In this document: positions 2,527 to 63,964 of the stretch, piece by piece
Layout of the letters: every line of letters starts with the position of its first letter
How positions within the stretch are numbered: the first letter of the stretch is position 1
From: Candidatus Bathyarchaeota archaeon BA2
GTDB lineage: Archaea > Thermoproteota > Bathyarchaeia > Bathyarchaeales > Bathyarchaeaceae
Direction: 5' to 3'
NCBI GenBank assembly: GCA_001399795.1
Contig: LIHK01000023.1
Span: forward strand, 6,916 to 70,915
DNA: 64,000 nucleotides
Program-made: the position numbers and the translations under genes
Notes under the pieces: model-generated
Seen by the model: only the letters and a program-made list of their open reading frames with translations
Databases searched by the model: none
What the model was told of the DNA's origin: nothing

Positions 2527-2868
2527 GTGTTCCTTACGCTGAGCCAACTCCGAGAATACGTGCCCAAACCAAGTATTATGAGAGCTGTTTTCCCCGGTGA
2601 CGGGAGAGAGTATGGCTACGTTCTACCAGACTTGAAGAAGGCTTCACAGGCGGCTGGCAGACCTATACGAAGTCTAGAGGATAGAGGAGCCATAATCTTT
2701 CTGGATTACTGCTTCGCCACAAAATGTTGTCAGCGCTTCCTACCATTTTGGATTAGAAGAGGTATGAAGACACTTCCAGACGAAGAAGGTGCCATAGCAA
2801 AAGAACTCATCCTCTTCCACGCCCAAAAAACTAACCCTTCCACCAAAGTTTATTTTGAATCCAAATAA
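2527..2868 (+). CDS. hypothetical protein (weak)
   Basis: 113-aa ORF with no recognisable motif. It lies between a GC-rich structured segment and the R-M pair. Confidence 0.25.
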   Translation: MFLTLSQLREYVPKPSIMRAVFPGDGREYGYVLPDLKKASQAAGRPIRSLEDRGAIIFLDYCFATKCCQRFLPFWIRRGMKTLPDEEGAIAKELILFHAQKTNPSTKVYFESK

Positions 2869-5032: not shown

Positions 5033-5221
5033 CTACGCCCTCTTCTCTAGTATTGTCTCCCTTTTAGTAAGTTTTTCTATATTTAAATTATTTATATTCG
5101 CAACATTTCCAAGCGCATTTCTGGTCACCGCTGCTTTTCTGTTAACTCGTATTAGCTGTCATTCACACAAAAAGATTTAAGAAACCGATGTCTCAGAATT
5201 GAAGGTGGCGGGGTAAACCGT

Positions 5222-5386
5222 AGCGAGAGAATTTATGCTCTCCTATATGGGTGGGGTAGCCAGGTGAACCCGCTGGGCTCATAAGCTTAGGCTGAGAGAC
5301 CCAGAGATAGCAGTCGCATTAGGCTGCCTCTAACGGTAGTTCAAAAGAAGGCGGAAAACCTTCTGAAACTCTACCCCCCGCTACCA
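5222..5386 (+). tRNA. initiator-type tRNA-Met (CAU) with four BHB introns and an encoded CCA
   Basis: Exons 5222-5225, 5249-5283, 5299-5308, 5334-5345 and 5370-5386 join to AGCGGGGTGGGGTAGCCAGGTGAACCCGCTGGGCTCATAACCCAGAGATCGGTAGTTCAAATCTACCCCCCGCTACCA, a perfect cloverleaf. Each intron folds as 3-nt bulge / 4-bp helix / 3-nt bulge. A1:U72 and G29-31:C39-41 are present. Confidence 0.85.
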
Positions 5387-5523
5387 TGTCATTTGCTTCT
5401 TTTTGGGCCTCTTCAACGAGGGAAATAACGATCATAACCTTTTTTGTCTTCATGAGATATTTCGGTTTTCCAGTTGACGGCAAGAACAACCGAGTGGTTT
5501 TAAGAAAAACTTTGGGATTCACG

Positions 5524-5736
5524 TTACTTTAAATTGGAATCGGAATCAGAATTATAGCTAGATTCCTCCTCTTCAAACTTTATCCTGTGAACATACCAAC
5601 AGTAATGATGCCTAACAGAGTCCTTGACAAAATCCGCAATACTGGCATAACCACACTCAGGATGCTCCCTAATCAACCGCTCCACAACTTCCAGCATTTT
5701 GGAAGGCAACTTCACAGTTCTGTACCGTCTATCCAT
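5524..5736 (-). CDS. ribbon-helix-helix (CopG-like) DNA-binding protein
   Basis: From the internal ATG at 5736 the protein reads MDRRYRTVKLPSKMLEVVERLIRE...GYASIADFVKDSVRHH, a beta-strand followed by two helices. The long form starting at 5790 is unlikely. Confidence 0.6.
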   Translation of the reverse strand: MDRRYRTVKLPSKMLEVVERLIREHPECGYASIADFVKDSVRHHYCWYVHRIKFEEEESSYNSDSDSNLK

Positions 5737-5860
5737 TGCGCTCCACAACCATGAGGATAAGCATGAGATAGAAGGTACGAAACATTTCAAATTTATGAGT
5801 AATCCATGACTCAGAATCCGAAGACGCCGACAGAAAGCTCGCGAAGCCTTAGTCTTTCAG

Positions 5861-24171: not shown

Positions 24172-24323
24172 AAGATGAAACGACTGTTCCATTGTCAAAC
24201 TGAATAGGGTATTCGAGAATCTTACTCGAAACATTATTTGAAAAAAGCGCGCGCGATTAATTCGGAATGTTGAAAACATAAAGTTTATATAACGCTTGAG
24301 TGTCTCACTGTTTAGGTGTTTAT

Positions 24324-24563
24324 ATGTCTAAGCGTACAACCATCCTGCTTGATAAGGAACTCTACGAGGAACTTGTGAAGGAAAGTTTAAGAAGATACGG
24401 AACTGTTAAAGCTCTATCTAAAGTTTTGAATTCAATATTGTTGGAGACTTTTAAAGGTAAGAGAGAGATGCTAAGGTTAATCTACTCAGAAAAAGCTGCG
24501 AAAACAACATGTGAGGAGTTTGAAAAGTTTCGGAGAGAACTGTCAAGAAGGCTAGAATCCTGA
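24324..24563 (+). CDS. VapB-type antitoxin (small DNA-binding protein)
   Basis: MSKRTTILLDKELYEELVKE begins at the ATG at 24324. The gene lies immediately upstream of the PIN gene, and its stop overlaps the PIN reading frame. Confidence 0.55.
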   Translation: MSKRTTILLDKELYEELVKESLRRYGTVKALSKVLNSILLETFKGKREMLRLIYSEKAAKTTCEEFEKFRRELSRRLES

Positions 24564-24583
24564 TCCTAGACACTACTTATCTT

Positions 24584-24988
24584 TTGCCTCTTGCTAGAAT
24601 TGAGATAGACGTGGATCTTCTAAGGGCCGTAGCTGACGGCAAAGTTGACTTAAAACTGGAAGACATAACCGTTAATACTATTTCGCTTTTTGAGCTCCAG
24701 GCAAAGGCCGCAAAGTTAAAAGTGCCAGCGAACTTTGTGATCGAAGCTATAGAGGCAATTCTCAAAACCTTCAAGATAGAGCAATTCCACAAGCCAAAAA
24801 TTATAGAGGTTGCTAGCGAAATAAGAAATATGCTGCCAGATTACATCGACTGCGTTATAGTTGCAACCGCGGTTTCGCTGAAGAATGATTTATTAACGGA
24901 GGACTCTTTAATACTATCCAGAAGAGGACCAATTAAGCAAAAGTATGGGATAAAAATATCAAAATTTTCAGAGTTTGTTGGAAAATGA
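24584..24988 (+). CDS. PIN-domain ribonuclease (VapC-like toxin)
   Basis: LFELQAK and DCVIVATAVSLKNDLLTEDS supply acidic residues. The first PIN aspartate (LILDTTYLLP) is encoded at 24560-24583, upstream of the first canonical start codon. Confidence 0.7.
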   Translation: MPLARIEIDVDLLRAVADGKVDLKLEDITVNTISLFELQAKAAKLKVPANFVIEAIEAILKTFKIEQFHKPKIIEVASEIRNMLPDYIDCVIVATAVSLKNDLLTEDSLILSRRGPIKQKYGIKISKFSEFVGK

Positions 24989-37260: not shown

Positions 37261-37290
37261 TAAGGAATCACTTGTGCGGATAAAAGAAAG

Positions 37291-37843
37291 AGTGATTTTG
37301 CTTTTCTGCTTGACGGTTTAGAAGAGGAAGGCGAATTAACAATAGACATAATGGCCAACTACTGCCTAGGACGTCTACCAATACGAAAACAACCAATAAA
37401 TCATCCGCCCGCAAAATCGAAACAGGAACACTTAAGCCTGGGAAAACGGTCATTTTCAAACCATCTAGAACCGGGAGACTCAGTCGGCTTATTTTAGACG
37501 GAATTGACACGGTTAGGAGAGGCGAAGTATTAAGCTATCCTCAAAACCAGCCACAAAACGTCAAAAATTCATCGCTGAAATAATTGTATCCTCCGATATC
37601 CAGATAAAAATGGTGATGAACTAATAATTCGTTATGGAAACGCTGAAAAGGAGAAGTGCAAAAAATACTAAGTGAAATCGATCCCTTTTTCCCTTCAATA
37701 ATAAATCTTCCAAGTTCGGGAGAGTCAGAGTAGTTTTGAGGCATAGTGGCCCAAGCGCGAGAAGTTCCATTTTTTAAAACTTCTGGAAGTTTAGAACGGA
37801 CAGCGAGACTAAATAAAACTTTTTTCTTCTCGCACAAGCGCGC
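37291..37843 (+). pseudogene. heavily decayed remnant of a translational GTPase (EF-1alpha-like), domains II-III
   Basis: Fragments are readable across three frames: LLDGLEEEG...GRLPIRKQPINH, KIETGTLKPGKTVIFKPS...RRGEVLSYPQNQP, FIAEIIVSSDIQ, DELIIRYGNAEKEKCK and ILSEIDP. There are multiple stops. It ends at GCGCGC 37838-37843. Confidence 0.5.
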
Positions 37844-37973
37844 TACATGAGGTGTTAACCAAACAATATTTGAGAAGCTTTGAAGAGGGTCGATTTTTTG
37901 TGCCGTTGTTACATGCTTGAATGAAGAGGAAAAATTGAAGTGTTGCCTGTAAAGTCAAGTCTTCAGTTCATAC

Positions 37974-39866
37974 CTAGGATTCCTCTTCGTAGTAGAATAT
38001 GCGTAGTTTTTCGTCACCTTCTGGATAATAGAAAACTCCCCCCGGATAGGTTTCGAGGTTATTGTCTTCAGCTTGTTTAATTATGCGTTTGTATTCATCT
38101 TCACCCAGTCTGAGTTTTGATATAATGAAGTAGGTGACCTTAGCATCCGTGTAGTTCATGGCTTCGATCATTACCTCAGGCGATGGGTTATTCTTTATTT
38201 TGTTGAATAATGCCACTCCCACGGGGTTACGTTCTGGGAAGTAGTATGCCCTTAGATTGTAGGTTCCTGTCATCATCTGTCCTGCGTATGATATCCATCT
38301 GTCGCATATTACGATATAGCTTTTGTTTGTAGTTTTTTCGATGTATTTTACTGCTTCCAATTCGTAGGATGTTGTTTGCACTATACCTAGTGAAATGTGG
38401 GGGTAGGCATAATTGACTGAGAGGGTGATCCATCCTGCCAGCACGACTGGCATTAAGATATTCATCATAAAGAGTAACCCTAGAGCGGAATAGGTGATGG
38501 CTTTCAGGAATATTTTTACGTTTCTAAAGGATGTTATTGGAACCAGCAAATGCAACTTGAAGGAAGTAATCTTTGAGATTGTGCGACGGGAAAATGCGAG
38601 GAGCTCCTTTATGGCGAGTGCTACTAGTGGGACGCTTAAGAGGTCTCTGAACATCCATAGTCTTTCTTCTCTGAAGGGTACCCCCACCATGAATAAATTT
38701 AGTATATGATAATCTATCCAAAGCATGAGAAGTCCGAGAAAGAGAAATACTATGTAGATGCGTGTGTTGTTGCTGTGTTCTTGATTGCGGGTTGTGTACA
38801 GTTTGTATATGACCCAGATGAAAGCGATGAGGGGTCCAATGATGTGTATGAGCATGACGGGAAGAGAGTAGCCTAAATAGTCACCTAGCAGGAACCTTCC
38901 GATCAGTTCTGTTATCGTGTATCCGTGGATTTTGTCCATGCTGAAATATGTGTATAGATGGACAGAGAATCTTTGACATACGAGAGCGAAAGGCAGGAGG
39001 CTTGTCGATAAAATGAAAACCATTGGTAGAAAGAGTTTTGCGAATGATGGGGCTTCTCTTTTTTCCCTTTCGTATTCTCTGAGAGAATAGGCTATCAAAA
39101 GGAAAGAGAAGGAAATTAATCCTGTTAAGAAGTGTGATACGAAAGAAGCAAAGGTGAATATCAGCATTAGGCGTGTGTACATAGATTCTGGAGAAGTGAG
39201 GTACTTTAAAAAGAAGTATAGGGACCCTAGGAAGAATATGAAGCCTAAGCTGTTGGGCACAGAGATTGCTCCCCAAGAGATGAGGAGAGGAAAGGCTAAG
39301 CTCAAGAGACTTGCGAGGGCTGAAATTTTCTCGTCTCCTCCAAGTGTTTTGGTGATCATGAAAGTAATTGTTGGAATGAATATTCCCCAGAGCATTGGTA
39401 GCAGTAGCAGGTGACTCCAAAAAACATCTATCCCAAACATACGTGCAAATGTCACGCTGTAAACACTCTGGAAGTTGCCGCTGCCGAACCAGTTGTATAT
39501 TCTTGTTAGAATGTTTTCGACGGTTCCTCCAAATCCGTGAGGTGCAGTATTGTCGAATATGCGCCTCGTGACGCCTAGTACCGATTGTTGGAACGATATT
39601 TTACCAGCTGGAAAGACAATGACAAAGAAAGAATGTGAAAGGATAGAGTGAACAATTATGAAAAGTATTTTGTATTCAACTTTTTCAGATGAGAAAATAA
39701 TTGCAACTAATAGGGCTGTTGTTGCGAAGAAGAGGGGCATGAACAAAGGATGCATATGTTGCCACACCGTATACGGTTCCTCAGATCGCGAAATTAGAAG
39801 GAGGAAAAAGAGGAGAACCGTGAAGAAGAGATAAAGAATTTTTGTAAAGGCGTAAATGTTTTTCAT
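37974..39866 (-). CDS. large polytopic membrane protein with a C-terminal soluble domain (possible GT-C-type glycosyltransferase or polymerase)
   Basis: 630 aa with more than 12 hydrophobic segments followed by a roughly 130-aa hydrophilic tail. It sits in the glycan cluster. No WWDYG (AglB) motif is present. Confidence 0.65.
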   Translation of the reverse strand: MKNIYAFTKILYLFFTVLLFFLLLISRSEEPYTVWQHMHPLFMPLFFATTALLVAIIFSSEKVEYKILFIIVHSILSHSFFVIVFPAGKISFQQSVLGVTRRIFDNTAPHGFGGTVENILTRIYNWFGSGNFQSVYSVTFARMFGIDVFWSHLLLLPMLWGIFIPTITFMITKTLGGDEKISALASLLSLAFPLLISWGAISVPNSLGFIFFLGSLYFFLKYLTSPESMYTRLMLIFTFASFVSHFLTGLISFSFLLIAYSLREYEREKREAPSFAKLFLPMVFILSTSLLPFALVCQRFSVHLYTYFSMDKIHGYTITELIGRFLLGDYLGYSLPVMLIHIIGPLIAFIWVIYKLYTTRNQEHSNNTRIYIVFLFLGLLMLWIDYHILNLFMVGVPFREERLWMFRDLLSVPLVALAIKELLAFSRRTISKITSFKLHLLVPITSFRNVKIFLKAITYSALGLLFMMNILMPVVLAGWITLSVNYAYPHISLGIVQTTSYELEAVKYIEKTTNKSYIVICDRWISYAGQMMTGTYNLRAYYFPERNPVGVALFNKIKNNPSPEVMIEAMNYTDAKVTYFIISKLRLGEDEYKRIIKQAEDNNLETYPGGVFYYPEGDEKLRIFYYEEES

Positions 39867-39867
39867 T

Positions 39868-40254
39868 TCAGTTCCCTACCATATTTTTTCTTAGTTTGTT
39901 GATGGCTGAACACAAGATGGCTACGACGCAAAGTGCCACTGATGTGATGTTGATGTCAAGATTGTAGATAATCAGGGTTATCCAGCCAATTGTGCCTAGG
40001 AGTAGGAGAAACGTCAGGTTTCCAAATATAAACCTAATGAGTGATTTTTCTTTTTCGAAAAAAGCCTGCCCCAAGAAGATGGTGTTCGATGATAAGAAGG
40101 TAAGAGAAGCGGTTATACCTATGATTGGTGAATTAAGAAAAATTTGGTTTATGTAGATGATCAAGATCATAAGCAATGAAAACGTTGTGAAAAGAAATTT
40201 CTCGTCTCGTGTTATCAGATCTTCCATATCTTTAAGTTTGCATCGGCGCTTCAT
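39868..40254 (-). CDS. small four-TM membrane protein
   Basis: 128 aa. Its stop lies 1 nt from the start of the downstream 630-aa membrane protein gene. Confidence 0.55.
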   Translation of the reverse strand: MKRRCKLKDMEDLITRDEKFLFTTFSLLMILIIYINQIFLNSPIIGITASLTFLSSNTIFLGQAFFEKEKSLIRFIFGNLTFLLLLGTIGWITLIIYNLDINITSVALCVVAILCSAINKLRKNMVGN

Positions 40255-40593
40255 TTCTTATCGCCTATTACTGGCTTCAAACTGCTTAGTCAATGTACTA
40301 TGGGGTTATTAAATGATTTTTATATATCCTTCTTTCAGGACGGTTGCCCTTATTTCTTACCACTAAGTGCCGCACCGTCAGGGAATCAGACAACCTTAGA
40401 CGCCATGGTTAATCAGAATTTGTATTTGTTAGATATGGCTGGAGGACCGGTGGGTTGGGTTTACGTAACCAACGGAACCCTAACGTGGAGTTACGATGCC
40501 TCCACCAAGATATTAACATTAAACGTTACACACCTTAGCCCCGCAAGAATAGTAGTTTACTGGCGCAGACGACTTCATATTCTCAGGGGCATA

Positions 40594-40998
40594 CTATTTC
40601 TGTGTTTCCAGTTTATGCTTGGTTTTTCTAAACTTTTTGAAATATAATCCCACCCCAATAGCGACAGCCGTCAAAGATAAACCAGCAACCAACATATGTA
40701 GGAGCGGAATGCCCGGCCCTCCCACTTTATAACGGTAAGCTGACGTTGTCTCGACGTTCTTAGCCCTGTCCGTAGCTTGAACAAGAAACGAGACAACCTT
40801 GCCGTCGCTTTGACCTGGAATCTCAGCCCGCCAGAGACCATTTTCATAAGTCATATTAATCGTCCAGTGAGGAAGGAGGTCGCGGTTCAAAAAGTAATAA
40901 AGCCTCACAGTATCTAAACCACTTGCGTTCTCCGGCTCGTCTATAGAAACTTGGACAAGCACTGGCTGGCCAGCAGAAGGGTTCACGGGATCCCACAT
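40594..40998 (-). CDS. Ig-like surface domain with a C-terminal TM anchor; the N-terminus appears replaced (fragment)
   Basis: It ends GGPGIPLLHMLVAGLSLTAVAIGVGLYFKKFRK and has no signal peptide. Its ATG lies inside the tail of an out-of-frame GT2 remnant. Confidence 0.45.
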   Translation of the reverse strand: MWDPVNPSAGQPVLVQVSIDEPENASGLDTVRLYYFLNRDLLPHWTINMTYENGLWRAEIPGQSDGKVVSFLVQATDRAKNVETTSAYRYKVGGPGIPLLHMLVAGLSLTAVAIGVGLYFKKFRKTKHKLETQK

Positions 40999-41102
40999 GG
41001 GAACTCACAAACAACCACCATATCTACATGTCTCTGCGCGACCAAAACCACTTTAGCTATGGTTTTCTCCTCGTTATAGGCAGGTATACCAGTGACAATC
41101 AA
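40983..41102 (-). pseudogene. N-terminal remnant of a family-2 glycosyltransferase
   Basis: LIVTGIPAYNEEKTIAKVVLVAQRHVDMVVV is followed by a stop after 39 codons. The DDGS region is absent. Confidence 0.5.
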
Positions 41103-41105
41103 AAC

Positions 41106-41462
41106 CTACGCAACCCAGCAAACACTAAAATCTCTTGAATTCACAGCATTTATGCCATGAAACCTGATGAAGCCCGAATCGTGCTTCCAACTTGAAGCAC
41201 TAATGTTTCCCCAACCTAGGGCAATCGCGCTTCCAGCCTTATTCACATTCTCCAAAAACTTGCTCTCCAGGTTCTTCAACAACTTTCTGACAATATCCAA
41301 AACCACTCTAGCAAGAATTGGGCTTCGAATCTTCTCTACGCAACGTATAGTCAAGTCAACGATGCCTCTCTCCACCCTCGACAAGACTTTAAACCAAACC
41401 CTACGCCTCAAGGCTCTAGTCTTAATTTTCATCAAACTCTGCCTAGTCACCAAATTCTCCAC
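41106..41462 (-). CDS. hypothetical helical protein
   Basis: 118-aa ORF with no motif. An overlapping plus-strand ORF of similar length makes the strand choice uncertain. Confidence 0.35.
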   Translation of the reverse strand: MENLVTRQSLMKIKTRALRRRVWFKVLSRVERGIVDLTIRCVEKIRSPILARVVLDIVRKLLKNLESKFLENVNKAGSAIALGWGNISASSWKHDSGFIRFHGINAVNSRDFSVCWVA

Positions 41463-41889
41463 TTTCCTCTCTTTTCAGTCGATCTCCCTCAACAGCGGGA
41501 AACCGCGACACCAACTAATTTTAGAAGCAGACTTCTATTAAAGGTTATTTCCTAATTTTTATATAAACCAAGTTCTATACAAGAACATGTAAATTTACTG
41601 AACAAAAACAAACTTCAAAAACAACAAATTTTAAACTTATCAGATAAAGACAAGGAAGCTAGGACAGCTTCTACCGCATTTTCAACAACTCAAACGGAAA
41701 ACTTAATTCTTATCTATCATAGCTGATGTTGCCTTGGTTAAGCACTCTGTAGACTGAAGAGAGGCAGGGTGGTGACTGCTTATTTTTCATCCAATTGCGC
41801 GCGCAAGTTCGGAAAGCCTTGAAGAACTTTCTTACAGCAACCTCACTCAAAAGTGACAAGAAATGCGATTTTCTGCGAAAAGCGACAAA

Positions 41890-42348
41890 CTACAGCTCTT
41901 TTGTTTCAACTTTACTTGACACAAAGTCTATAGCTTGGACCACGTTTTTAGCAATTCCTAGAAGGCACGTCAGGACTAGCATGGCTAGCACCACCGTGGC
42001 ATTGAGCATAATATTTACGGACGCTCCTTCAAAAGGCACAGTCAAGGCTATGACGCCGCCATTCAAGACGTAGATAAAGAATATCATCAAGGCTAAATTT
42101 CTGGCAACGCCGAACACGTATTGAAAGACGGTTCCAGAAGAAAGCACACCAACAAAGAGAAGGAAAATGAACACTGCCGCAAATATGTTGGTGAGTGGCT
42201 CATACCAAGGAAAGAAGGGCTGAATGGGACTTATAAGGGTTGAAAGGAAATACATAGGTAAATACGTGATAACCGCCAACAAAGCCGCTTTGAAAACCCT
42301 TGGCACAATCTTTTTCACGAAGAGTTTGGTATTTCTTTCCTCAACCAT
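41890..42348 (-). CDS. four-TM membrane protein
   Basis: 152 aa. It overlaps the upstream gene's stop by 8 nt, consistent with an operon. Confidence 0.6.
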   Translation of the reverse strand: MVEERNTKLFVKKIVPRVFKAALLAVITYLPMYFLSTLISPIQPFFPWYEPLTNIFAAVFIFLLFVGVLSSGTVFQYVFGVARNLALMIFFIYVLNGGVIALTVPFEGASVNIMLNATVVLAMLVLTCLLGIAKNVVQAIDFVSSKVETKEL

Positions 42349-43060
42349 ACGGCATCACCACGGGACCAAAACTGAACACAGAGGTCTCAAAATAAAAATG
42401 CATTTCACCGCTCGGCGTGAGCTTTAGGTCATTGACAATTAGCTCAATTCGATCCTCATACTTAGAATGTGATGGTGCATCCAAACTTGATGTTCTGGAA
42501 GCTATAACCTCACCTCTATCGTTGTACATTTCAGCAAGCATCATCCCGTCTACGCCGAAATACGGTGAGTGATTTTCAAAACTTAAGGGTATAATAACCC
42601 TTCGATGTGTAAGGTTATGGTCATTGTAAGAGGGTTGTCCCACGGAAAAGTTGTAGAGGGGTGCCCCCCAAGGTATTGTCGTATTCATTGAACCCTTAAG
42701 GGGGACAACACGCGCAAAATTTAGTTTCATGGATGCGTCCATATTGAAAATGGTGTCATTAAATAGGTAAATTTGAGCCCTAGATGTAATGTCGTCTAGG
42801 TTCATAGAGATGTTATACGCCGTCTCAACGCTGCTACCTCTTGATATCAAAGGTACAAACGTTGTGGATGTCGACACTAAAGATCCATTGTAGTCCACTA
42901 GGTTAACCGTTATGTTGAGTTCGTACAGATCATAAAGGCCAGTGTTATTAATGAGTAAAGGAATCGAAATAACCACGAGTCCACTTGAAAGGAATACTTG
43001 GGGTTCCCCAAAACTTATCCTCACGTTCATAGCTGAGTATACCGACGTAGCTGAAAACAT
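42341..43060 (-). CDS. secreted or anchored beta-rich protein (LEA_2/immunoglobulin-like); its N-terminal anchor is probably encoded in another frame from 43121
   Basis: 239 aa. Upstream, MRYAVRALGW (ATG at 43121) and in-frame QQKYFWIFIIMFSATSVYSA would form a classic signal anchor if 1 nt were removed. Confidence 0.55.
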   Translation of the reverse strand: MFSATSVYSAMNVRISFGEPQVFLSSGLVVISIPLLINNTGLYDLYELNITVNLVDYNGSLVSTSTTFVPLISRGSSVETAYNISMNLDDITSRAQIYLFNDTIFNMDASMKLNFARVVPLKGSMNTTIPWGAPLYNFSVGQPSYNDHNLTHRRVIIPLSFENHSPYFGVDGMMLAEMYNDRGEVIASRTSSLDAPSHSKYEDRIELIVNDLKLTPSGEMHFYFETSVFSFGPVVMPYG

Positions 43061-43137
43061 GATTATGAAGATCCAAAAATATTTTTGTTGCCCAGCCCAG
43101 CGCCCTTACCGCATACCTCATTCGCCTTTCTTCCCTT

Positions 43138-43554
43138 TTACCATAGGCGGCTAGGAGTATCACTTGACGAGCTTGGCTTTCTCAACCTTTCCAGTTTTTT
43201 AGCCTTCAGGCTTTCTGCAGTCTTGGGCTTCGGGGCTTTCACGGTTTCCGGGACTATTGACTTGAATTCTGGTTTAACTTCAGTTTTTACTTCGCGTTTG
43301 AGTTGTGTGACTAGTTGTACGCCCCTTATCGTCAGTAAAGAACCTATCCATCCCATTATGCCGAGGTACATGATACGAATGCATGTTTCAATCAATGGAG
43401 CCAAAGCCGTGCCGAAAAAGGTTACGAGATCAGCTGATCCTGTGATGGTTGGATTATTGCTAAGAAACAGGCATGCGCTGGCGAAGGTGAAAGCTAGCAG
43501 GGCTATGCCTATGAATAGAGTAGCGTATCCTGAAACCTCAGCTTTGTCTTCCAT
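43138..43554 (-). CDS. membrane protein with a Lys/Pro-rich C-terminal tail
   Basis: 138 aa with three hydrophobic helices followed by KREVKTEVKPEFK...KAPKPK. Confidence 0.6.
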   Translation of the reverse strand: MEDKAEVSGYATLFIGIALLAFTFASACLFLSNNPTITGSADLVTFFGTALAPLIETCIRIMYLGIMGWIGSLLTIRGVQLVTQLKREVKTEVKPEFKSIVPETVKAPKPKTAESLKAKKLERLRKPSSSSDTPSRLW

Positions 43555-43684
43555 AAGTGGGGCCCTCGTCGTAAGTTAGCTAAGAAAATGATATTAAGTC
43601 TTCTGTCTCACTAAACCATATTTTCCTTAATTATCCACCCTTCGCATCCAGGAGAAGTTTAGTGAGTAAAAAGCAGTCAAGGTC

Positions 43685-43955: not shown

Positions 43956-44294
43956 ATGAGTAGGGGTTCTCTCATCGAACTTGCGTCCAAGTATTTTAGG
44001 CAAAATGGGTACACAATCGAGAAAGACGCTGTTTTGGAAGGAATTTCTGGTCTTCCGCGGAAGTTTGATATGGTTATTCGCAAAGGCAAAGAGCAACACT
44101 CGGTTTGGATCAAAGATTGGAAGAGAACAGTGGGTGTCAATATTGTTATAAACATGGACAAGGCATCAGAGGATGTGGGGTTTCCAAAACCAGTAATGAT
44201 ATCTGACAAATTTAGTGGTCACGCGAAGGCTTATGCCAATCGTCGGGGCATTACGTTGCTTTCAAAACGTCAAATCCTACGGATGCTGGGATAA
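43956..44294 (+). CDS. small restriction-endonuclease-like (PD-(D/E)XK, Mrr-cat-like) protein
   Basis: EGISGLPRKFDMVI...VWIKDWK fits an E...D...(I/V)xK core. 112 aa. Confidence 0.5.
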   Translation: MSRGSLIELASKYFRQNGYTIEKDAVLEGISGLPRKFDMVIRKGKEQHSVWIKDWKRTVGVNIVINMDKASEDVGFPKPVMISDKFSGHAKAYANRRGITLLSKRQILRMLG

Positions 44295-59660: not shown

Positions 59661-59966
59661 ATGGTGCGAAGATCAAAACTGGAAAGGTACATTAGCATTC
59701 TTGAGATTCTGGCGCGTGCGCGCAATTTTGCGTCTCAGGAGCCAATGGACTTAACCCAACTTATGCGTAAGACTGGTCTAAGCAAAAGCGTTCTGAAACA
59801 ACACTTAGACTCTCTGATACAGCAAAACCTTGTTGAAGAACAAAACTTAGGTAAAGACAAAATTTTCTACGCCATTACAGAAAGAGGTCTAAAGGTGCTG
59901 TACGTTGTCGTCCCAATAATTGAAGAAGCGCGCAAAATCCCAGCATCGCTATACCAGCATGAATGA
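59661..59966 (+). CDS. winged-helix transcriptional regulator
   Basis: 101 aa. MDLTQLMRKTGLSKSVLKQHLDSLIQQNLVEE...FYAITERG. Confidence 0.65.
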   Translation: MVRRSKLERYISILEILARARNFASQEPMDLTQLMRKTGLSKSVLKQHLDSLIQQNLVEEQNLGKDKIFYAITERGLKVLYVVVPIIEEARKIPASLYQHE

Positions 59967-59997
59967 CGGAATAGACCACCACTTTTGTCATTTTTGC

Positions 59998-60316
59998 GCG
60001 CGCATAAGTGTTGAATAATTCTTTTTGGCTTGTTTTGGTGATTGGGGCGGTTTTTGGGCTTAGTAGGTGAATGCTGCTATGCTGTTGGCTAGGTCTGGTC
60101 TGCCTATCTTGTGTGTCGTGATGGCCACCGCATATATGCATGAGTAGCATAGGGCCACGTGCATGCGCTGAAAACTTTCCAAACCGGTTTGTCACCTCTT
60201 CTGAGGTTGATTTAACCATCCCTTGGCATTCTCACCCCTATAAGCCTAACTAAGCCTAGAAAAAGCCTAATTGACGGAAATAAGTTAGGAAAGAATTATT
60301 CAACACTTATGCGCGC
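59998..60316. mobile_element. MITE-like non-autonomous element with 27-bp perfect terminal inverted repeats
   Basis: GCGCGCATAAGTGTTGAATAATTCTTT at 59998-60024 is the exact reverse complement of 60290-60316. The 265-bp interior has subterminal GGCTT/AAGCC(TA) repeats and no credible ORF. Confidence 0.6.
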
Positions 60317-60522
60317 AACCGTCAACGATTTATAAAAGGTGATAATTACCGTTTAACCCCGAAAACTTCAAAAATCCTTTAAACTAACCTTTATGGTTGC
60401 GAGCTAAATGTTTCGAAGAAGCGTTGTCCCCCCACAGACTGAAGGGGTTTCCATCGTTCTCACAAGGGTCAGCTACCGACATGAGCGACTTCAAACTCAA
60501 TCCGTCAAATCTTCTCTAAAAG

Positions 60523-61212
60523 TCACGTATATCCGTACTGAGCTAGATAGGACCTGATGTATTCAACTGCTCGTTCTCTTGGTCTGTAGATTCCAAAATG
60601 CCCCTCTGCCAAGACATCAAAGTCCAAGCTGACAAGTTTCTTCATAGATTCAGCCCATTCTGAAATGTTGGAACGAAACTCGGACATGAATGGACCATGA
60701 ACATCCTGCGCGAAAAGGATATTTCCACCCGAGGTGCTGAGAAGTATCGAAATGCTTCCAGGCGTGTGACCTGGCGTGTGAAACCATCTTAAGGTTTTGT
60801 TTCCCACTGGAAATTTTCCCTCAGAGCCCGAAAGTTTAACATCTACTTTGCAGGGAATCAAAATCTGGCTATACCAAACAGCCCCTGTTAGTTTGGGATC
60901 TGCTTTTTCTAAAACCTCACTGTCTAACTCGTGGGCAACCGTTTTGCACCCATATTTTTCGCGAAAAGAAGCGGCTCCTCCAACATGGTCTATGTGAGAA
61001 TGCGTGATAAACAGGGTTGAGATATCCTCTGGATTTAAATCCGCCGTCTTTATGTTTTTACAAATTTTATTAATATCTACGCTGACGCCAGCGTCAATCA
61101 ACGCCAACTCGCTTTTACAATCTACAAGGTAAACCATGCAATCTCCTGGATTAGATATTTCAGAACTGCCGACCAAGTAAACTCCGGGAAGTATTTCAGA
61201 GGGTTTTTGCAT
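60523..61212 (-). CDS. MBL-fold metallo-hydrolase
   Basis: THSHIDHVGG (HxHxDH) and a downstream HTPGHTPG motif. Confidence 0.85.
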   Translation of the reverse strand: MQKPSEILPGVYLVGSSEISNPGDCMVYLVDCKSELALIDAGVSVDINKICKNIKTADLNPEDISTLFITHSHIDHVGGAASFREKYGCKTVAHELDSEVLEKADPKLTGAVWYSQILIPCKVDVKLSGSEGKFPVGNKTLRWFHTPGHTPGSISILLSTSGGNILFAQDVHGPFMSEFRSNISEWAESMKKLVSLDFDVLAEGHFGIYRPRERAVEYIRSYLAQYGYT

Positions 61213-61246
61213 GGGACTGTTTACTCTCCGCTCCTAGAAAAGCTTG

Positions 61247-63964
61247 TCATTTCATGAGTTCACGCTGGCTTTTTAGTTCTTCTTTTAGGTTGAGAGCGGC
61301 TTTCACGGTGCCGTCACCTAAATTTTCGGTGATGAATCCCATTTTCTTCATAAGATTAATAGCCAGATAGTTATCACTTAACAACAGGCCATAAATTGTT
61401 TCAAGTTTTTTGTCTTTACAGATTTCAATCATGTGATCAAGCATTTTTGACCCCAGGCCCAAGCCTTGCCAGGAATCAGCAACGACGATAGCTATTTCGC
61501 CAGTTTTTCCATCGGGTTCAATAACAAGTCTGACAACGCCTAAGATTTTTCTTTGTCCATCGCCAGGCAATTCTGCTACGATTGCTATTTCTCTGTCATA
61601 GTCGATGTTGCAATAGCGAACTCTAACCTCATGCGGTGTTTCTTCGATAACATTGAAAAATCTGTGATGTATGGTTTGTTCTGAAAAGTTTTTGAACATT
61701 TCAAGCCACAAGGGTTCATCTTCAGGCTTTATAGGTCTTAGAAGAACAATTTGTCCATCACGAAGCTTCCACAAAGTTTCGTACTTTATGGGATAGGGAC
61801 TAATCACCAAATGTTCGTGAGGTTCAAGTTCCGCGAATACGCGTTCTTTATCAATTACTATGCGGGCGTCAAGAGCTAAAGCTTCCTTTTCATCTATTAA
61901 CAATGGATTAATGTCAACTTCTTTCAGTTGCGGAAAGTCAACAAGCATCCTGGAAAACCGCACCATTATACCTTCAAGAAGCCTAAGATTTGCCGGCGGC
62001 GCATTTCTATAACCTTTCAGAAGCTGATAAACTTTCGTTTCCTCCATGATTCTTCTAGCTAAAATTTGATTTAACGGTGGAAGCCCGATAGCAACATCTT
62101 TGAATAATTCAACACCGACACCGCCCATTCCAAACAAGATTACTGGACCGAAAAGCGGGTCAGTTTTAGCCCCGAGAATGATTTCATAGCCCCGCTTTTT
62201 AATCATAGGTTGAATTGTAACACCACGAATTTCAGCTTCTGGATTGTATTCTTTAGCTCGCTTTATGATAAGATCAAATGCCTCCCGAAGCTCAGCCTCT
62301 GAAGCTATATCAAGCACGACGCCTCCCGCGTCAGTTTTATGAACAATTTGAGGCGAAAGAATCTTCAGAACCACTGGATAACCTATTTGAGAAGCTGAAA
62401 TAGCCGCCTCATCTACAGTTTTTGCCACCAACGTTTTAACAACTGGAATATTGTAATATTCCAGAAGTTGCTTTGCTTCGATCTCAGTCAATATTTCCCG
62501 GTTTTCCTTGGCAACATTTCTCATTATCACCATAAGCGGACGTTTCGGTGGAACACTTTCCACAGGAAGTTCTTCAGGTGTTTCATAAAGCAATTCAAGA
62601 TTACGTTTATACCGATACATATACATGTATGATTTAACCGCTTGCTCCGGAGTGGAGAACGTTGGAACGCTGTTTTCGGTTAAAATGTGGTTCGCCTCTT
62701 CTACCTCTTCATAACCCATGAAAGACGTCAAAAGCGTCTTGTAATGGCCTTTACTTTTACCCAGCTCCACGATGTTTCTTGCAATCTCAGCGGGATCTGA
62801 TACGCCCTGAGGAGTATAAATTATCAATAAACCGTCAACATTTTCATCTTCAATACATGCTTCTACAACAGCTCTATATCTATCAGCTTTAGCATCTCCC
62901 AAAATATCAATCGGGTTTCCTCTACTCCAATAACGTGGCAAGATGCTGTTAAGCCTCTCCATTGTTTTTCGGCTTAGCTTAGCCAGTTTTCCTTCTCTGG
63001 CTATAAGTGCGTCCGTAGCCATTATTCCTGGACCGCCCGCATTAGTGATTATGGCAAGATTTGGGCCTCTGGGAAGGGGCTGCATGTCCAAAACTTCGGC
63101 AATGTTAAAGAGATCATCAATTTCCTCAACGCGCACTATTCCAGCACGTTTAAACGCTGCATCGTATGTCATGTCTTCGCCGGTGAGGGACCCGGTATGC
63201 GAAGCAGCAGCCTTTGCGCTTTCACCAAACTTTCCAGCCTTCACTACGATTATTGGTTTGGTTTTTGCAAAGTGCCTTGCAGCACTCATGAATTCTCTAG
63301 CATCGGTTATTCCTTCGATGTACATTAATATGCTTCTTGTCTTTGGATCAGTACCAAAATAGTCTATAAGATCGCCGAAGTCTACGTCAATCATTGAGCC
63401 TATGGAAACGAAGTTGCTAAAGCCTATGTTCTCGTGGATGCCCCAGTCAAGGATTGCTGCGCCTAATGCACCGCTTTGAGAAATAAACGCTATATTACCT
63501 GGCTTCGGCATTCTAGTTACAAAGGTCGCGTTAAGATTGATGCTTGGACGGATGATGCCTAAACAGTTAGGTCCTATAATTCGTAGATTGTATTTCTTCT
63601 TTATCTCAAGAATTCTGTCCTCTAGTGCTTTGCCTTCCGGTCCAACTTCTTTAAAACCAGCTGAAATAATGATGATTCCAATTATTCCAGCTTTCCCACA
63701 CTGCTCCACTACGTCAGGAACGGTTTTAGCTGGAGTAGCGATTACAGCAAGGTCAACTGTTTCTGGAAGTTGATCCACGGTTTTATAGGCTTTAAAACCG
63801 AGAATCTCCTTTTTGCGAATGTTAACTGGATAAACCTTGCCTTCATAACCTAACTCGGTGAGATTTTTCATTAATGTATATCCGACAGAACCCTTCTCAT
63901 CACTTGCCCCAATCACCGCGATGCTTTTAGGATTAAAAATTCTGTCAAGATTTGACGTAACCAA
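61247..63964 (-). CDS. ADP-forming acyl-CoA synthetase (alpha and beta domains) fused to a C-terminal GNAT domain (Pat-like protein acetyltransferase architecture)
   Basis: FNPKSIAVIGAS, a CoA-binding domain, an ATP-grasp region, then the GNAT motif QGLGLGSKMLDHM. The frame stays open to the window end, so the start is not fixed. Confidence 0.85.
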   Translation of the reverse strand: MVTSNLDRIFNPKSIAVIGASDEKGSVGYTLMKNLTELGYEGKVYPVNIRKKEILGFKAYKTVDQLPETVDLAVIATPAKTVPDVVEQCGKAGIIGIIIISAGFKEVGPEGKALEDRILEIKKKYNLRIIGPNCLGIIRPSINLNATFVTRMPKPGNIAFISQSGALGAAILDWGIHENIGFSNFVSIGSMIDVDFGDLIDYFGTDPKTRSILMYIEGITDAREFMSAARHFAKTKPIIVVKAGKFGESAKAAASHTGSLTGEDMTYDAAFKRAGIVRVEEIDDLFNIAEVLDMQPLPRGPNLAIITNAGGPGIMATDALIAREGKLAKLSRKTMERLNSILPRYWSRGNPIDILGDAKADRYRAVVEACIEDENVDGLLIIYTPQGVSDPAEIARNIVELGKSKGHYKTLLTSFMGYEEVEEANHILTENSVPTFSTPEQAVKSYMYMYRYKRNLELLYETPEELPVESVPPKRPLMVIMRNVAKENREILTEIEAKQLLEYYNIPVVKTLVAKTVDEAAISASQIGYPVVLKILSPQIVHKTDAGGVVLDIASEAELREAFDLIIKRAKEYNPEAEIRGVTIQPMIKKRGYEIILGAKTDPLFGPVILFGMGGVGVELFKDVAIGLPPLNQILARRIMEETKVYQLLKGYRNAPPANLRLLEGIMVRFSRMLVDFPQLKEVDINPLLIDEKEALALDARIVIDKERVFAELEPHEHLVISPYPIKYETLWKLRDGQIVLLRPIKPEDEPLWLEMFKNFSEQTIHHRFFNVIEETPHEVRVRYCNIDYDREIAIVAELPGDGQRKILGVVRLVIEPDGKTGEIAIVVADSWQGLGLGSKMLDHMIEICKDKKLETIYGLLLSDNYLAINLMKKMGFITENLGDGTVKAALNLKEELKSQRELMK

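Follow-up and report, generated by a model that had tools for sequence, protein, structure and literature searches.

Reviews of archaeal tRNA genes give three introns as the maximum for a single gene (PMC4033280; PMC8450103, the tRNAscan-SE 2.0 paper). In the Thermoproteales, which reach this number, several bulge-helix-bulge (BHB) introns are found per gene, many of them at non-canonical sites (Sugahara et al. 2008; PMC4033280, PMC8450103). Their multi-intron genes have been linked to a broad-specificity (alpha-beta)2 splicing endonuclease, and the introns are gained rapidly, probably by transposing between sites (PMC4033280, PMC8450103). Four introns per gene are recorded for Asgard archaea in Supplementary Data 4 of Valentin-Alvarado et al. 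2024 (PMC11291895): four were predicted and four observed in Arg-TCT and Ile2-CAT of Freyarchaeia, and four were observed in Leu-GAG of Freyarchaeia and in Trp-CCA of Atabeyarchaeia-2, while the Atabeyarchaeia-2 initiator has three. Several of the Asgard multi-intron genes are under-called by tRNAscan-SE (PMC11291895). A disrupted initiator gene that needs BHB processing is known from Thermofilum pendens, where tRNA-iMet is permuted, with the 3' half placed before the 5' half, is interrupted at junction 59/60 and lies unusually far from its promoter (Chan et al. 2011, PMC3218864). In Nanoarchaeum equitans and Caldivirga maquilingensis, split and tri-split tRNAs are trans-spliced from separate transcripts, and leaders and trailers outside the mature tRNA build the BHB. 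Finally, nuclear tRNA genes of the red alga Cyanidioschyzon merolae contain ectopic BHB introns, up to three per gene, in the D-arm, at 37/38 and in the T-loop, and it was shown experimentally that the order of splicing follows BHB stability (PMC3728597).

Here we describe positions 5222-5386 on the plus strand of the window, which is the whole 64-kb stretch of DNA that was analysed; its source, a Bathyarchaeia MAG, is of mesophilic type with 43% G+C. We interpret this locus, with a probability of about 0.88, as an initiator tRNA-Met(CAU) gene of Bathyarchaeia that is functional and interrupted by four BHB introns. The splicing arithmetic, the geometry of the BHBs, a blind scan of the window, the agreement of the product with intron-free orthologues and the covariation of the BHBs all support the initiator reading. 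The gene thereby exceeds the three introns of the Thermoproteales. The Asgard genes have four introns too, but they belong to a different phylum, outside Bathyarchaeia and TACK, and none of them is an initiator; moreover, the count is given in a supplementary table only, without a comparative series for one tRNA and without a leader element (PMC11291895). With the T. pendens initiator, which provides the precedent for a disrupted initiator gene, our locus shares the 59/60 site and the long distance between promoter and gene, but its five exons are colinear (PMC3218864). The likeness to split tRNAs lies in the leader, of which ACC-GU forms part of the first BHB, whereas here everything is on one transcript and the leader holds a copy of the acceptor strand. 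In the literature, we found four-intron tRNAs recorded earlier only in the supplementary table on Asgard archaea (PMC11291895), and no report of a four-intron initiator or of multi-intron Bathyarchaeia tRNAs came up in a partial coverage, which is not proof of novelty. Four introns is a count that ties the record; the phenomenon was known already, and what is added is a new lineage and the initiator. The sequence-only reading of this DNA had taken three as the maximum, which matches the reviews but is outdated, given the Asgard genes (PMC11291895) and seven metagenome initiators described below. The parts of the gene are as follows:

5222..5225, plus strand: exon 1 (tRNA positions 1-4, AGCG), from splicing and spliced alignment
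5226..5248, plus strand: intron 1, 23 nt, site 4/5 in the acceptor stem, with a BHB that draws on leader nucleotides
5249..5283, plus strand: exon 2 (positions 5-37, with the remainder of the acceptor 5' strand, the D arm, the 5' strand of the anticodon stem and CAT)
5284..5298, plus strand: intron 2, 15 nt, canonical position 37/38
5299..5308, plus strand: exon 3 (positions 38-47), from splicing and spliced alignment
5309..5333, plus strand: intron 3, 25 nt, site 47/48 in the variable loop
5334..5345, plus strand: exon 4 (positions 48-59, with the 5' strand of the T stem and the larger part of the T loop)
5346..5369, plus strand: intron 4, 24 nt, site 59/60 in the T loop
5370..5386, plus strand: exon 5 (positions 60-76, with the 3' strands of the T stem and the acceptor stem, A73 and CCA)

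Scripted joining of these five segments reproduced exactly the 78-nt string that had been proposed from the letters, and the lengths and sites of the introns (23, 15, 25 and 24 nt after tRNA positions 4, 37, 47 and 59) agreed as well. ARAGORN folds the spliced 78 nt into a tRNA-Met(CAT) cloverleaf with an acceptor stem of 7 bp, a D stem of 4 bp and anticodon and T stems of 5 bp each. The CCA is encoded in the genome at 5384-5386 (plus strand), as it is in 57 of 57 intron-containing relatives among the matches listed, and the sequence of exon 2 is identical in many Bathyarchaeia initiators. The archaeal initiator signature that had been claimed is there in full: the product contains the CAU anticodon, the pair A1:U72 (A at 5222 with T at 5382), the three pairs G29-31:C39-41 (CTGGG / CCCAG) and R11:Y24 in the form of G11:C24 (D stem GGGT/ACCC). 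The A1:U72 pair is a hallmark of archaeal initiator tRNA, and a purine-11:pyrimidine-24 pair in the D stem is a criterion of initiator identity.

On the unspliced DNA, ARAGORN gave no match with or without its intron mode, and neither did Rfam at the gathering threshold or at E<=1, so that the gene indeed escapes standard gene finders, as had been predicted. Could the arrangement be due to chance or to an assembly artefact? Loose BHB-like geometry is frequent, with about 23 occurrences per kb by chance, which is the one point in favour of this explanation, and BHB motifs alone are therefore weak evidence. For this reason we dropped BHB density as a stand-alone test and used a blind splice-and-scan with shuffled controls instead. 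BHB candidates were collected across the 64 kb on both strands (643 on plus, 517 on minus), chains of 1-4 compatible candidates were excised, and each of the approximately 9,000 products was passed through ARAGORN. The sole region of the window that yielded a tRNA was this locus, and the chain that did so, 5226-5248 / 5284-5298 / 5309-5333 / 5346-5369, consists of exactly the four introns. The shuffled controls (two windows, about 5,100 chains, ARAGORN) gave 0 tRNA. A spliced aligner that was given the mature sequence only, without coordinates, recovered the identical four gaps. An artefact is further contradicted by the assemblies, because MAG GCA_002509245.1 and the two independent assemblies of read runs SRR5036703 and SRR2132206 match the window to 100% across the tRNA locus; all three also encode the neighbouring 508-aa protein, in GCA_002509245.1 on contig DAEP01000080.1. 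Together with homologous multi-intron genes in dozens of independent genomes and metagenomes, these data effectively refute chance and artefact. Seeding of the window with reference tRNAs for further hidden tRNAs gave no credible seeds, with a reference set in which 98 of 118 entries are tRNA-Met.

The relatives of the gene were collected in two ways. A pattern search with exon 2, using one genome per species, returned at least 119 loci, nearly all of them labelled Bathyarchaeia or Bathyarchaeota and some labelled Caldarchaeales and Nitrososphaeria. When the mature tRNA was spliced-aligned to the genome loci listed and the usable ones were counted by intron number, at least 77 had no intron, at least 22 had one, at least 10 had two and at least 3 had three, in each case among the matches listed. 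The introns of these genome loci were invariably at 4/5, 37/38, 47/48 or 59/60 (among the matches listed). One locus that ends at a contig end (L038) probably has three introns. In a second scan we demanded introns at both 47/48 and 59/60 in metagenomes and obtained 24 loci. Here we detected seven other initiator genes with four introns, in two arrangements: the one of our window (4/5, 37/38, 47/48, 59/60) is also present in L133 and L134/L143, and a second one (15/16, 29/30, 47/48, 59/60) in L124, L127/L137, L140 and L145. The spliced products of all these metagenome four-intron genes are tRNA-Met(CAT). Several loci with apparently 4-9 introns were rejected, namely L058, L061 and L071 as contig-end artefacts with negative alignment scores, L128 and L131 as false positives in coding sequence, and L139, of which only the 3' half is present.

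The spliced product of the window is equal to the mature sequences of three relatives (L075, L107, L135), and its sole difference from the intron-free L086 is one compensatory pair in the T stem. Overall, about 140 related genes contain 0-4 introns at six recurrent sites (among the matches listed), in at least 13 combinations of presence and absence. So many combinations at six sites point to repeated independent gain and loss. Judged from this sequence comparison, the four introns are separate members of recurrent-site intron families that were gained and lost independently across Bathyarchaeia. As a side observation, a 12-nt identity links the 37/38 and the 47/48 introns.

We next turn to the BHBs themselves. 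The geometry tested was an exon-side helix h, a 4-bp central helix, a 3-nt bulge and an intron-side helix h', mirrored on the opposite strand; in the strict hBHBh' motif, both outer helices h and h' have at least 2 Watson-Crick pairs (PMC7714728). At intron 1, the central helix GTAG/CTAT is paired 4/4 (one G-U) between an h of 3 bp and an h' of 4 bp. Intron 2 has CTCA/TGAG (4/4), with the anticodon stem as an h of 5 bp and an h' of 2 bp, and intron 3 has AGAG/CTCT (4/4) with an h of 2 bp and an h' of 6 bp. At intron 4, TTCA/TGAA (4/4) is flanked by the T stem as an h of 5 bp and by an h' of 5 bp. All four introns thus have the strict hBHBh' form with 3-nt bulges on opposite strands. The 4-bp helix with two 3-nt bulges that had been proposed for each intron is therefore present at all four junctions. 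Cutting after the second bulge nucleotide at the eight sites does give the mature tRNA-Met(CAT), and this symmetric cutting leaves a canonical cloverleaf identical to the mature sequences of orthologues.

For the covariation analysis, pairs were counted in anchored 42-nt constructs for each intron class, and the control was the same count with the partner slid by 1-3 columns. In class 4/5 (22 related genes, 16-42 nt), 96.5% of the cells are paired compared to 42-55% after sliding. The corresponding values are 95.2% versus 14-51% in class 37/38 (45 related genes), 95.2% versus 28-45% in class 47/48 (26 related genes) and 94.8% versus 30-59% in class 59/60 (22 related genes), all among the matches listed and all with pair counts that are slightly inflated, since equivalent boundary placements were resolved to the best pairing. 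In each class the covariation score was above 500 out of 500 shuffles, and in class 59/60 five pairs have changed on both sides. Compensatory changes connect leader position -2 (G/A) with the last base of the intron motif CTAY; they turn h' of intron 4 from GAAGG/CCTTC into GGAGG/CCTCC and h' of intron 3 from GCAGTC/GGCTGC into GTGGT/ACCGC. In the second four-intron arrangement, exon position 26 (G/A) changes with the intron (CCGC/GCGG vs CCAC/GTGG).

The junctions had also been proposed for folding. Here the outcome is divided: the strict BHB geometry is found at all four introns, but the nearest-neighbour MFE fold of the precursor leaves the BHBs out, and folding alone is therefore no proof of them. 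For 3-nt bulges that are recognised by a protein it is usual that the BHBs lie outside the MFE fold. We used MFE folding solely for relative costs and for compatibility, within a model that disfavours 3-nt bulges. Enforcing BHB 1, 2 or 4 costs +5.7, +4.3 and +2.3 kcal/mol, respectively, in any splicing state. The full BHB3 costs +6 to +12 kcal/mol, while the central helix and intron helix of intron 3 alone cost 0-0.9 kcal/mol. The full BHB3 shares bases with BHB2 (5301-5304) and with BHB4 (5335-5336); its central helix covers tRNA positions 42-45, and its exon-side helix is formed by C40-C41 with G49-G50, which are residues of the anticodon stem and the T stem. Because the exon-side helix and half of the central helix take these stem bases, the four full BHBs cannot coexist. 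In the model, introns 1, 2 and 4 could be recognised independently and without an obligatory order. Intron 3 may be removed through a relaxed motif made of the central helix and the intron helix, or through a transient alternative fold with refolding; either would call for an endonuclease of broad specificity.

The region around the gene contains the following further elements:

5175..5182, plus strand: candidate TATA-like promoter box ATTTAAGA, by conservation in relatives and by spacing
5205..5221, plus strand: predicted 5' leader of the precursor
5207-5213, plus strand: acceptor-strand mimic GGCGGGG, within the leader
5217-5219, plus strand: leader ACC, exon-side helix of BHB1
5220-5221, plus strand: leader GT, first two nucleotides of the BHB1 central helix
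5392..5404, plus strand: T-rich tract TTTGCTTCTTTTT, candidate oligo-T transcription stop, read from the sequence

In archaea, oligo-T tracts function as transcription stops. An (A/G)ATTTAAG box is found 24-26 nt upstream of GGCGGGG in 20 of 22 genes that contain the 4/5 intron (among the matches listed), the remaining two have a CTTAAG variant, and the sequence between box and GGCGGGG is variable. From the usual archaeal spacing between TATA box and start we infer that ATTTAAGA would be the promoter, and transcription would start around position 5205, 0-2 nt before the mimic. BHB1 uses five nucleotides of the leader: ACC pairs with G6-G7-U8, and GU provides the first two central pairs. The ACC/GGU pairing is kept to 100% in the 4/5 class, with changes that are compatible with G-U pairs.

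The mimic itself, (G)TGGCGGGG, copies the 5' acceptor strand AGCGGGG and lies 7-11 nt upstream of A1 in 22 of 22 genes (among the matches listed). At an equal match of 6/7, 22/22 genes that contain the 4/5 intron have the mimic, versus 2/109 of those that lack this intron, again among the matches listed. The 7-mer is invariant, and the flanking columns are about 62% conserved. In the MFE fold, the leader segment GUGGCGGGG forms 9 bp with CCCCGCUAC, which comprises the 3' acceptor strand, A73 and C74. The mimic is probably a surrogate acceptor stem during splicing. Its conservation could in part come from common descent, as the 22 genes share the promoter and probably form one clade. In three relatives with the same promoter and no intron 1 (L125, L126, L142), the box is about 15 nt nearer to A1, which indicates that the leader and intron 1 behave as a module; from its sequence, this module looks like a tandem duplication of GT-RGCG. 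No prior description of a leader acceptor-strand mimic was found in our literature search. That the mimic is a novel precursor element and the Bathyarchaeia initiator the most intron-dynamic single tRNA known is an idea that we put forward tentatively, at less than even odds.

We also considered a gene model in which the tRNA begins with GGCGGGG and the intron lies at 7/8, and rejected it, since no BHB exists in that register. A related alternative is that the gene is functional and the 5' cut of intron 1 falls in the leader copy (GUGG-CG^G, 5205-5211), so that a 38-nt intron is removed and the tRNA starts with G1 (G1-U72) and not with A1. The leader does offer a near-exact repeat of the true site (GT-GGCG vs GT-AGCG), and GUGG can pair with the same CUAU through two G-U pairs. 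Such a site, however, would have no exon-side helix, would sit at the predicted start of the transcript and would possess only a weak intron-side helix of 3 bp, whereas at the true site the upstream ACC-RT is conserved and 100% paired with G6-G7-U8. Furthermore, every intron-free orthologue among the matches listed starts with A1, the partner of U72 in the initiator hallmark. We consider the cut in the leader copy improbable and retain A1 as the first nucleotide of the tRNA.

The tRNA gene adjoins a histidine-biosynthesis operon and other housekeeping genes, which places it in the core chromosome and not in a mobile element; the G+C content of the window is 41-46%. Neither EndA nor RtcB nor an integrase is encoded among 67 of the 70 candidate ORFs of the window (all but three at 59875-63964). 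One ORF overlaps the gene:

5319..5522, minus strand: 67-aa ORF over the tRNA gene's 3' half, a truncated remnant fused to antisense tRNA

As had been seen from the letters, this ORF crosses the 3' half of the gene. It has no Pfam match, and the public record calls no gene there. Conservation is confined to the part outside the tRNA, MKTKKVMIVISLVEEAQKEAND at 5388-5453, which is present in L134, L139 and L086 and represents the first 22 codons when reading starts at an internal ATG (5453-5388). In these relatives the protein runs on as ...EANE-IEKEIFQELS..., whereas the homology of the window ORF ends 0-3 nt from the CCA end of the tRNA and the frame enters antisense tRNA. We therefore rejected the ORF as a competing gene and regard it as what truncation has left of a conserved small ORF. 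The remnant marks a rearrangement breakpoint exactly at the 3' end of the tRNA.

This breakpoint would fit a decaying, non-functional copy that has received insertions while an intron-poor initiator gene exists elsewhere in the genome, and one relative, JAGTQF01, does have two initiator loci (L026, L051). Decay is difficult to reconcile with 78 of 78 exon nucleotides that are intact and identical to functional-looking orthologues, with eight splice sites that retain the exact BHB geometry, and with the conservation of the promoter box, of the leader and of the encoded CCA. Excision of randomly inserted segments would not leave a perfect cloverleaf, as illustrated by the 0 tRNA from shuffles, and each intron family is kept by compensatory changes in many lineages. 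In addition, in the complete Bathyarchaeia chromosomes that were hit (CP070754, CP070759, CP070826 and CP070679 are examples) the intron-containing gene is the sole locus among the matches listed. A decaying copy is hence very unlikely, and we keep the functional initiator gene as our reading.

For this gene, we propose the following processing pathway. Transcription would start about 24-26 nt downstream of ATTTAAGA, near 5205, and the precursor would open with GU-GGCGGGG, the copy of the 5' acceptor strand of the tRNA. This leader copy would pair with the 3' acceptor strand (CCCCGCU, A73 and C74), and the surrogate stem would persist for as long as BHB1 occupies both the leader ACC-GU and positions 1-8 of the true 5' strand. 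The archaeal splicing endonuclease would then cut the eight bulges, each after the second nucleotide. Since (alpha-beta)2 endonucleases are of broad specificity and occur mainly in TACK archaea (PMC7714728), we would expect this type here. The exons would be joined by an RtcB-type ligase, after which the true 5' strand would displace the leader copy. RNase P would finally remove the leader of about 17 nt, and the 3' trailer would be trimmed to the encoded CCA.

In summary, an essential initiator gene is invisible to ARAGORN and Rfam in this genome, as is probably the case in many other MAGs of Bathyarchaeia; initiator genes that are missed in this way affect estimates of the tRNA complement and of completeness. 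The four-intron tRNA genes on record are very few, and a TACK lineage and the initiator now join them; the figure of three introns given in reviews is obsolete outside the Asgard archaea too. The series of orthologues with 0-4 introns at six sites, with its compensatory changes, is a rare natural experiment on the gain and loss of introns, and the 12-nt identity of the 37/38 and 47/48 introns bears on the movement of introns between sites. Moreover, the acceptor-stem intron is strictly tied to a leader copy of the acceptor strand, which suggests a way for a precursor to deal with an intron in its own acceptor stem. If the proposed role is true, the mimic would keep the pre-tRNA tRNA-like while the 5' strand is locked in BHB1, and RNase P would discard it after splicing. 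The Bathyarchaeia initiator, with its six sites, at least 13 combinations and two independent four-intron arrangements, would be a natural system for the dynamics of BHB introns.

The leader of the initiator tRNA-Met gene carries a short copy of the 5' acceptor strand, which is invariant among the genes with the 4/5 intron:

Window 5205-5213: leader element (G)TGGCGGGG, copy of the 5' acceptor strand

We find this element in all 22 genes that have the acceptor-stem intron at 4/5, while an equally good match precedes just 2 of the 109 genes without it. Beside the window, the leaders concerned are those of the related loci L014, L031, L034, L037, L046, L047, L049, L065, L072-L075, L098, L103, L107, L110, L116, L133, L134, L143 and L144. 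A conserved ATTTAAG box, a TATA-like candidate promoter, lies upstream of the element at a distance of 24-26 nt (20 of the 22 genes). In the minimum free energy fold the 3' acceptor strand is the pairing partner of (G)TGGCGGGG, and the leader element may form a surrogate acceptor stem.

On the other side of the gene lies a pair of conserved small ORFs, both converging on the tRNA:

Window 5388-5453, minus strand: conserved small ORF
Window 5524-5790, minus strand: conserved small ORF

The ORF MDRRYRTVKLPSKMLE... looks like a putative ribbon-helix-helix protein. The ORF MKTKKVMIVISLVEEAQKEAN... is truncated in the window precisely at the CCA end of the tRNA and continues for about 35 residues more in relatives; the truncation marks a breakpoint, from a deletion or a rearrangement, at the 3' end of the tRNA.

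Locus L139 (about 2225-2343) has a partial initiator gene, and behind it come the small-ORF pair and the DUF498 gene that the window shows too. Only the 3' half of the gene exists here; it starts near position 34 and includes the introns at 47/48 and 59/60, and a TPR-like coding sequence lies upstream. This half gene could be a partial duplicate of the att-like kind that an integrating element leaves behind, or it could belong to a split gene.

Elsewhere in the window, a 113-aa ORF (2527-2868, plus strand) looks like a gene fragment, since its match to the Helicase_C_2 domain covers just the final 48 positions of that domain; it has the PAC2 gene on one side and, on the other, two unannotated genes (172 aa and 508 aa) adjoining the tRNA. 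At 24300-24988 (plus strand) a PIN-domain protein of 134 aa comes directly after a small ORF of 87 aa, a layout typical of a VapBC-type toxin-antitoxin pair. About twelve consecutive ORFs at 37268-43579, among them one for a 630-aa protein (37974-39866), have no Pfam match, and a short Mrr_cat restriction-endonuclease-like ORF follows at 43956-44294; together they could represent an element that has integrated, or else a defence island.

Metagenomes furnished a second four-intron arrangement of the initiator tRNA, in which one intron interrupts the D loop (15/16), one the anticodon stem (29/30), and the other two lie at 47/48 and 59/60:

L124, 272-432
L127, minus strand
L137, 1117-1270
L140, 1767-1922
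L145, minus strand

The 29/30 intron of this arrangement shows covariation with exon position 26. Combined with the sites of the window, the intron sites in the initiator tRNA family number six. In L134 and L143 we observe a 12-nt identity, GCTTAGGCTGAG, between the 37/38 intron and the 47/48 intron of the same gene; the counterpart of this identity in the window is 8 nt long (TTAGGCTG, at 5287-5294 in the 37/38 intron and 5319-5326 in the 47/48 intron). Shuffled intron pairs had a common substring of at least 9 nt in only 17 of 21,200 cases. This hints that one of these two introns derives from the other, which would mean a transposition of introns between sites.
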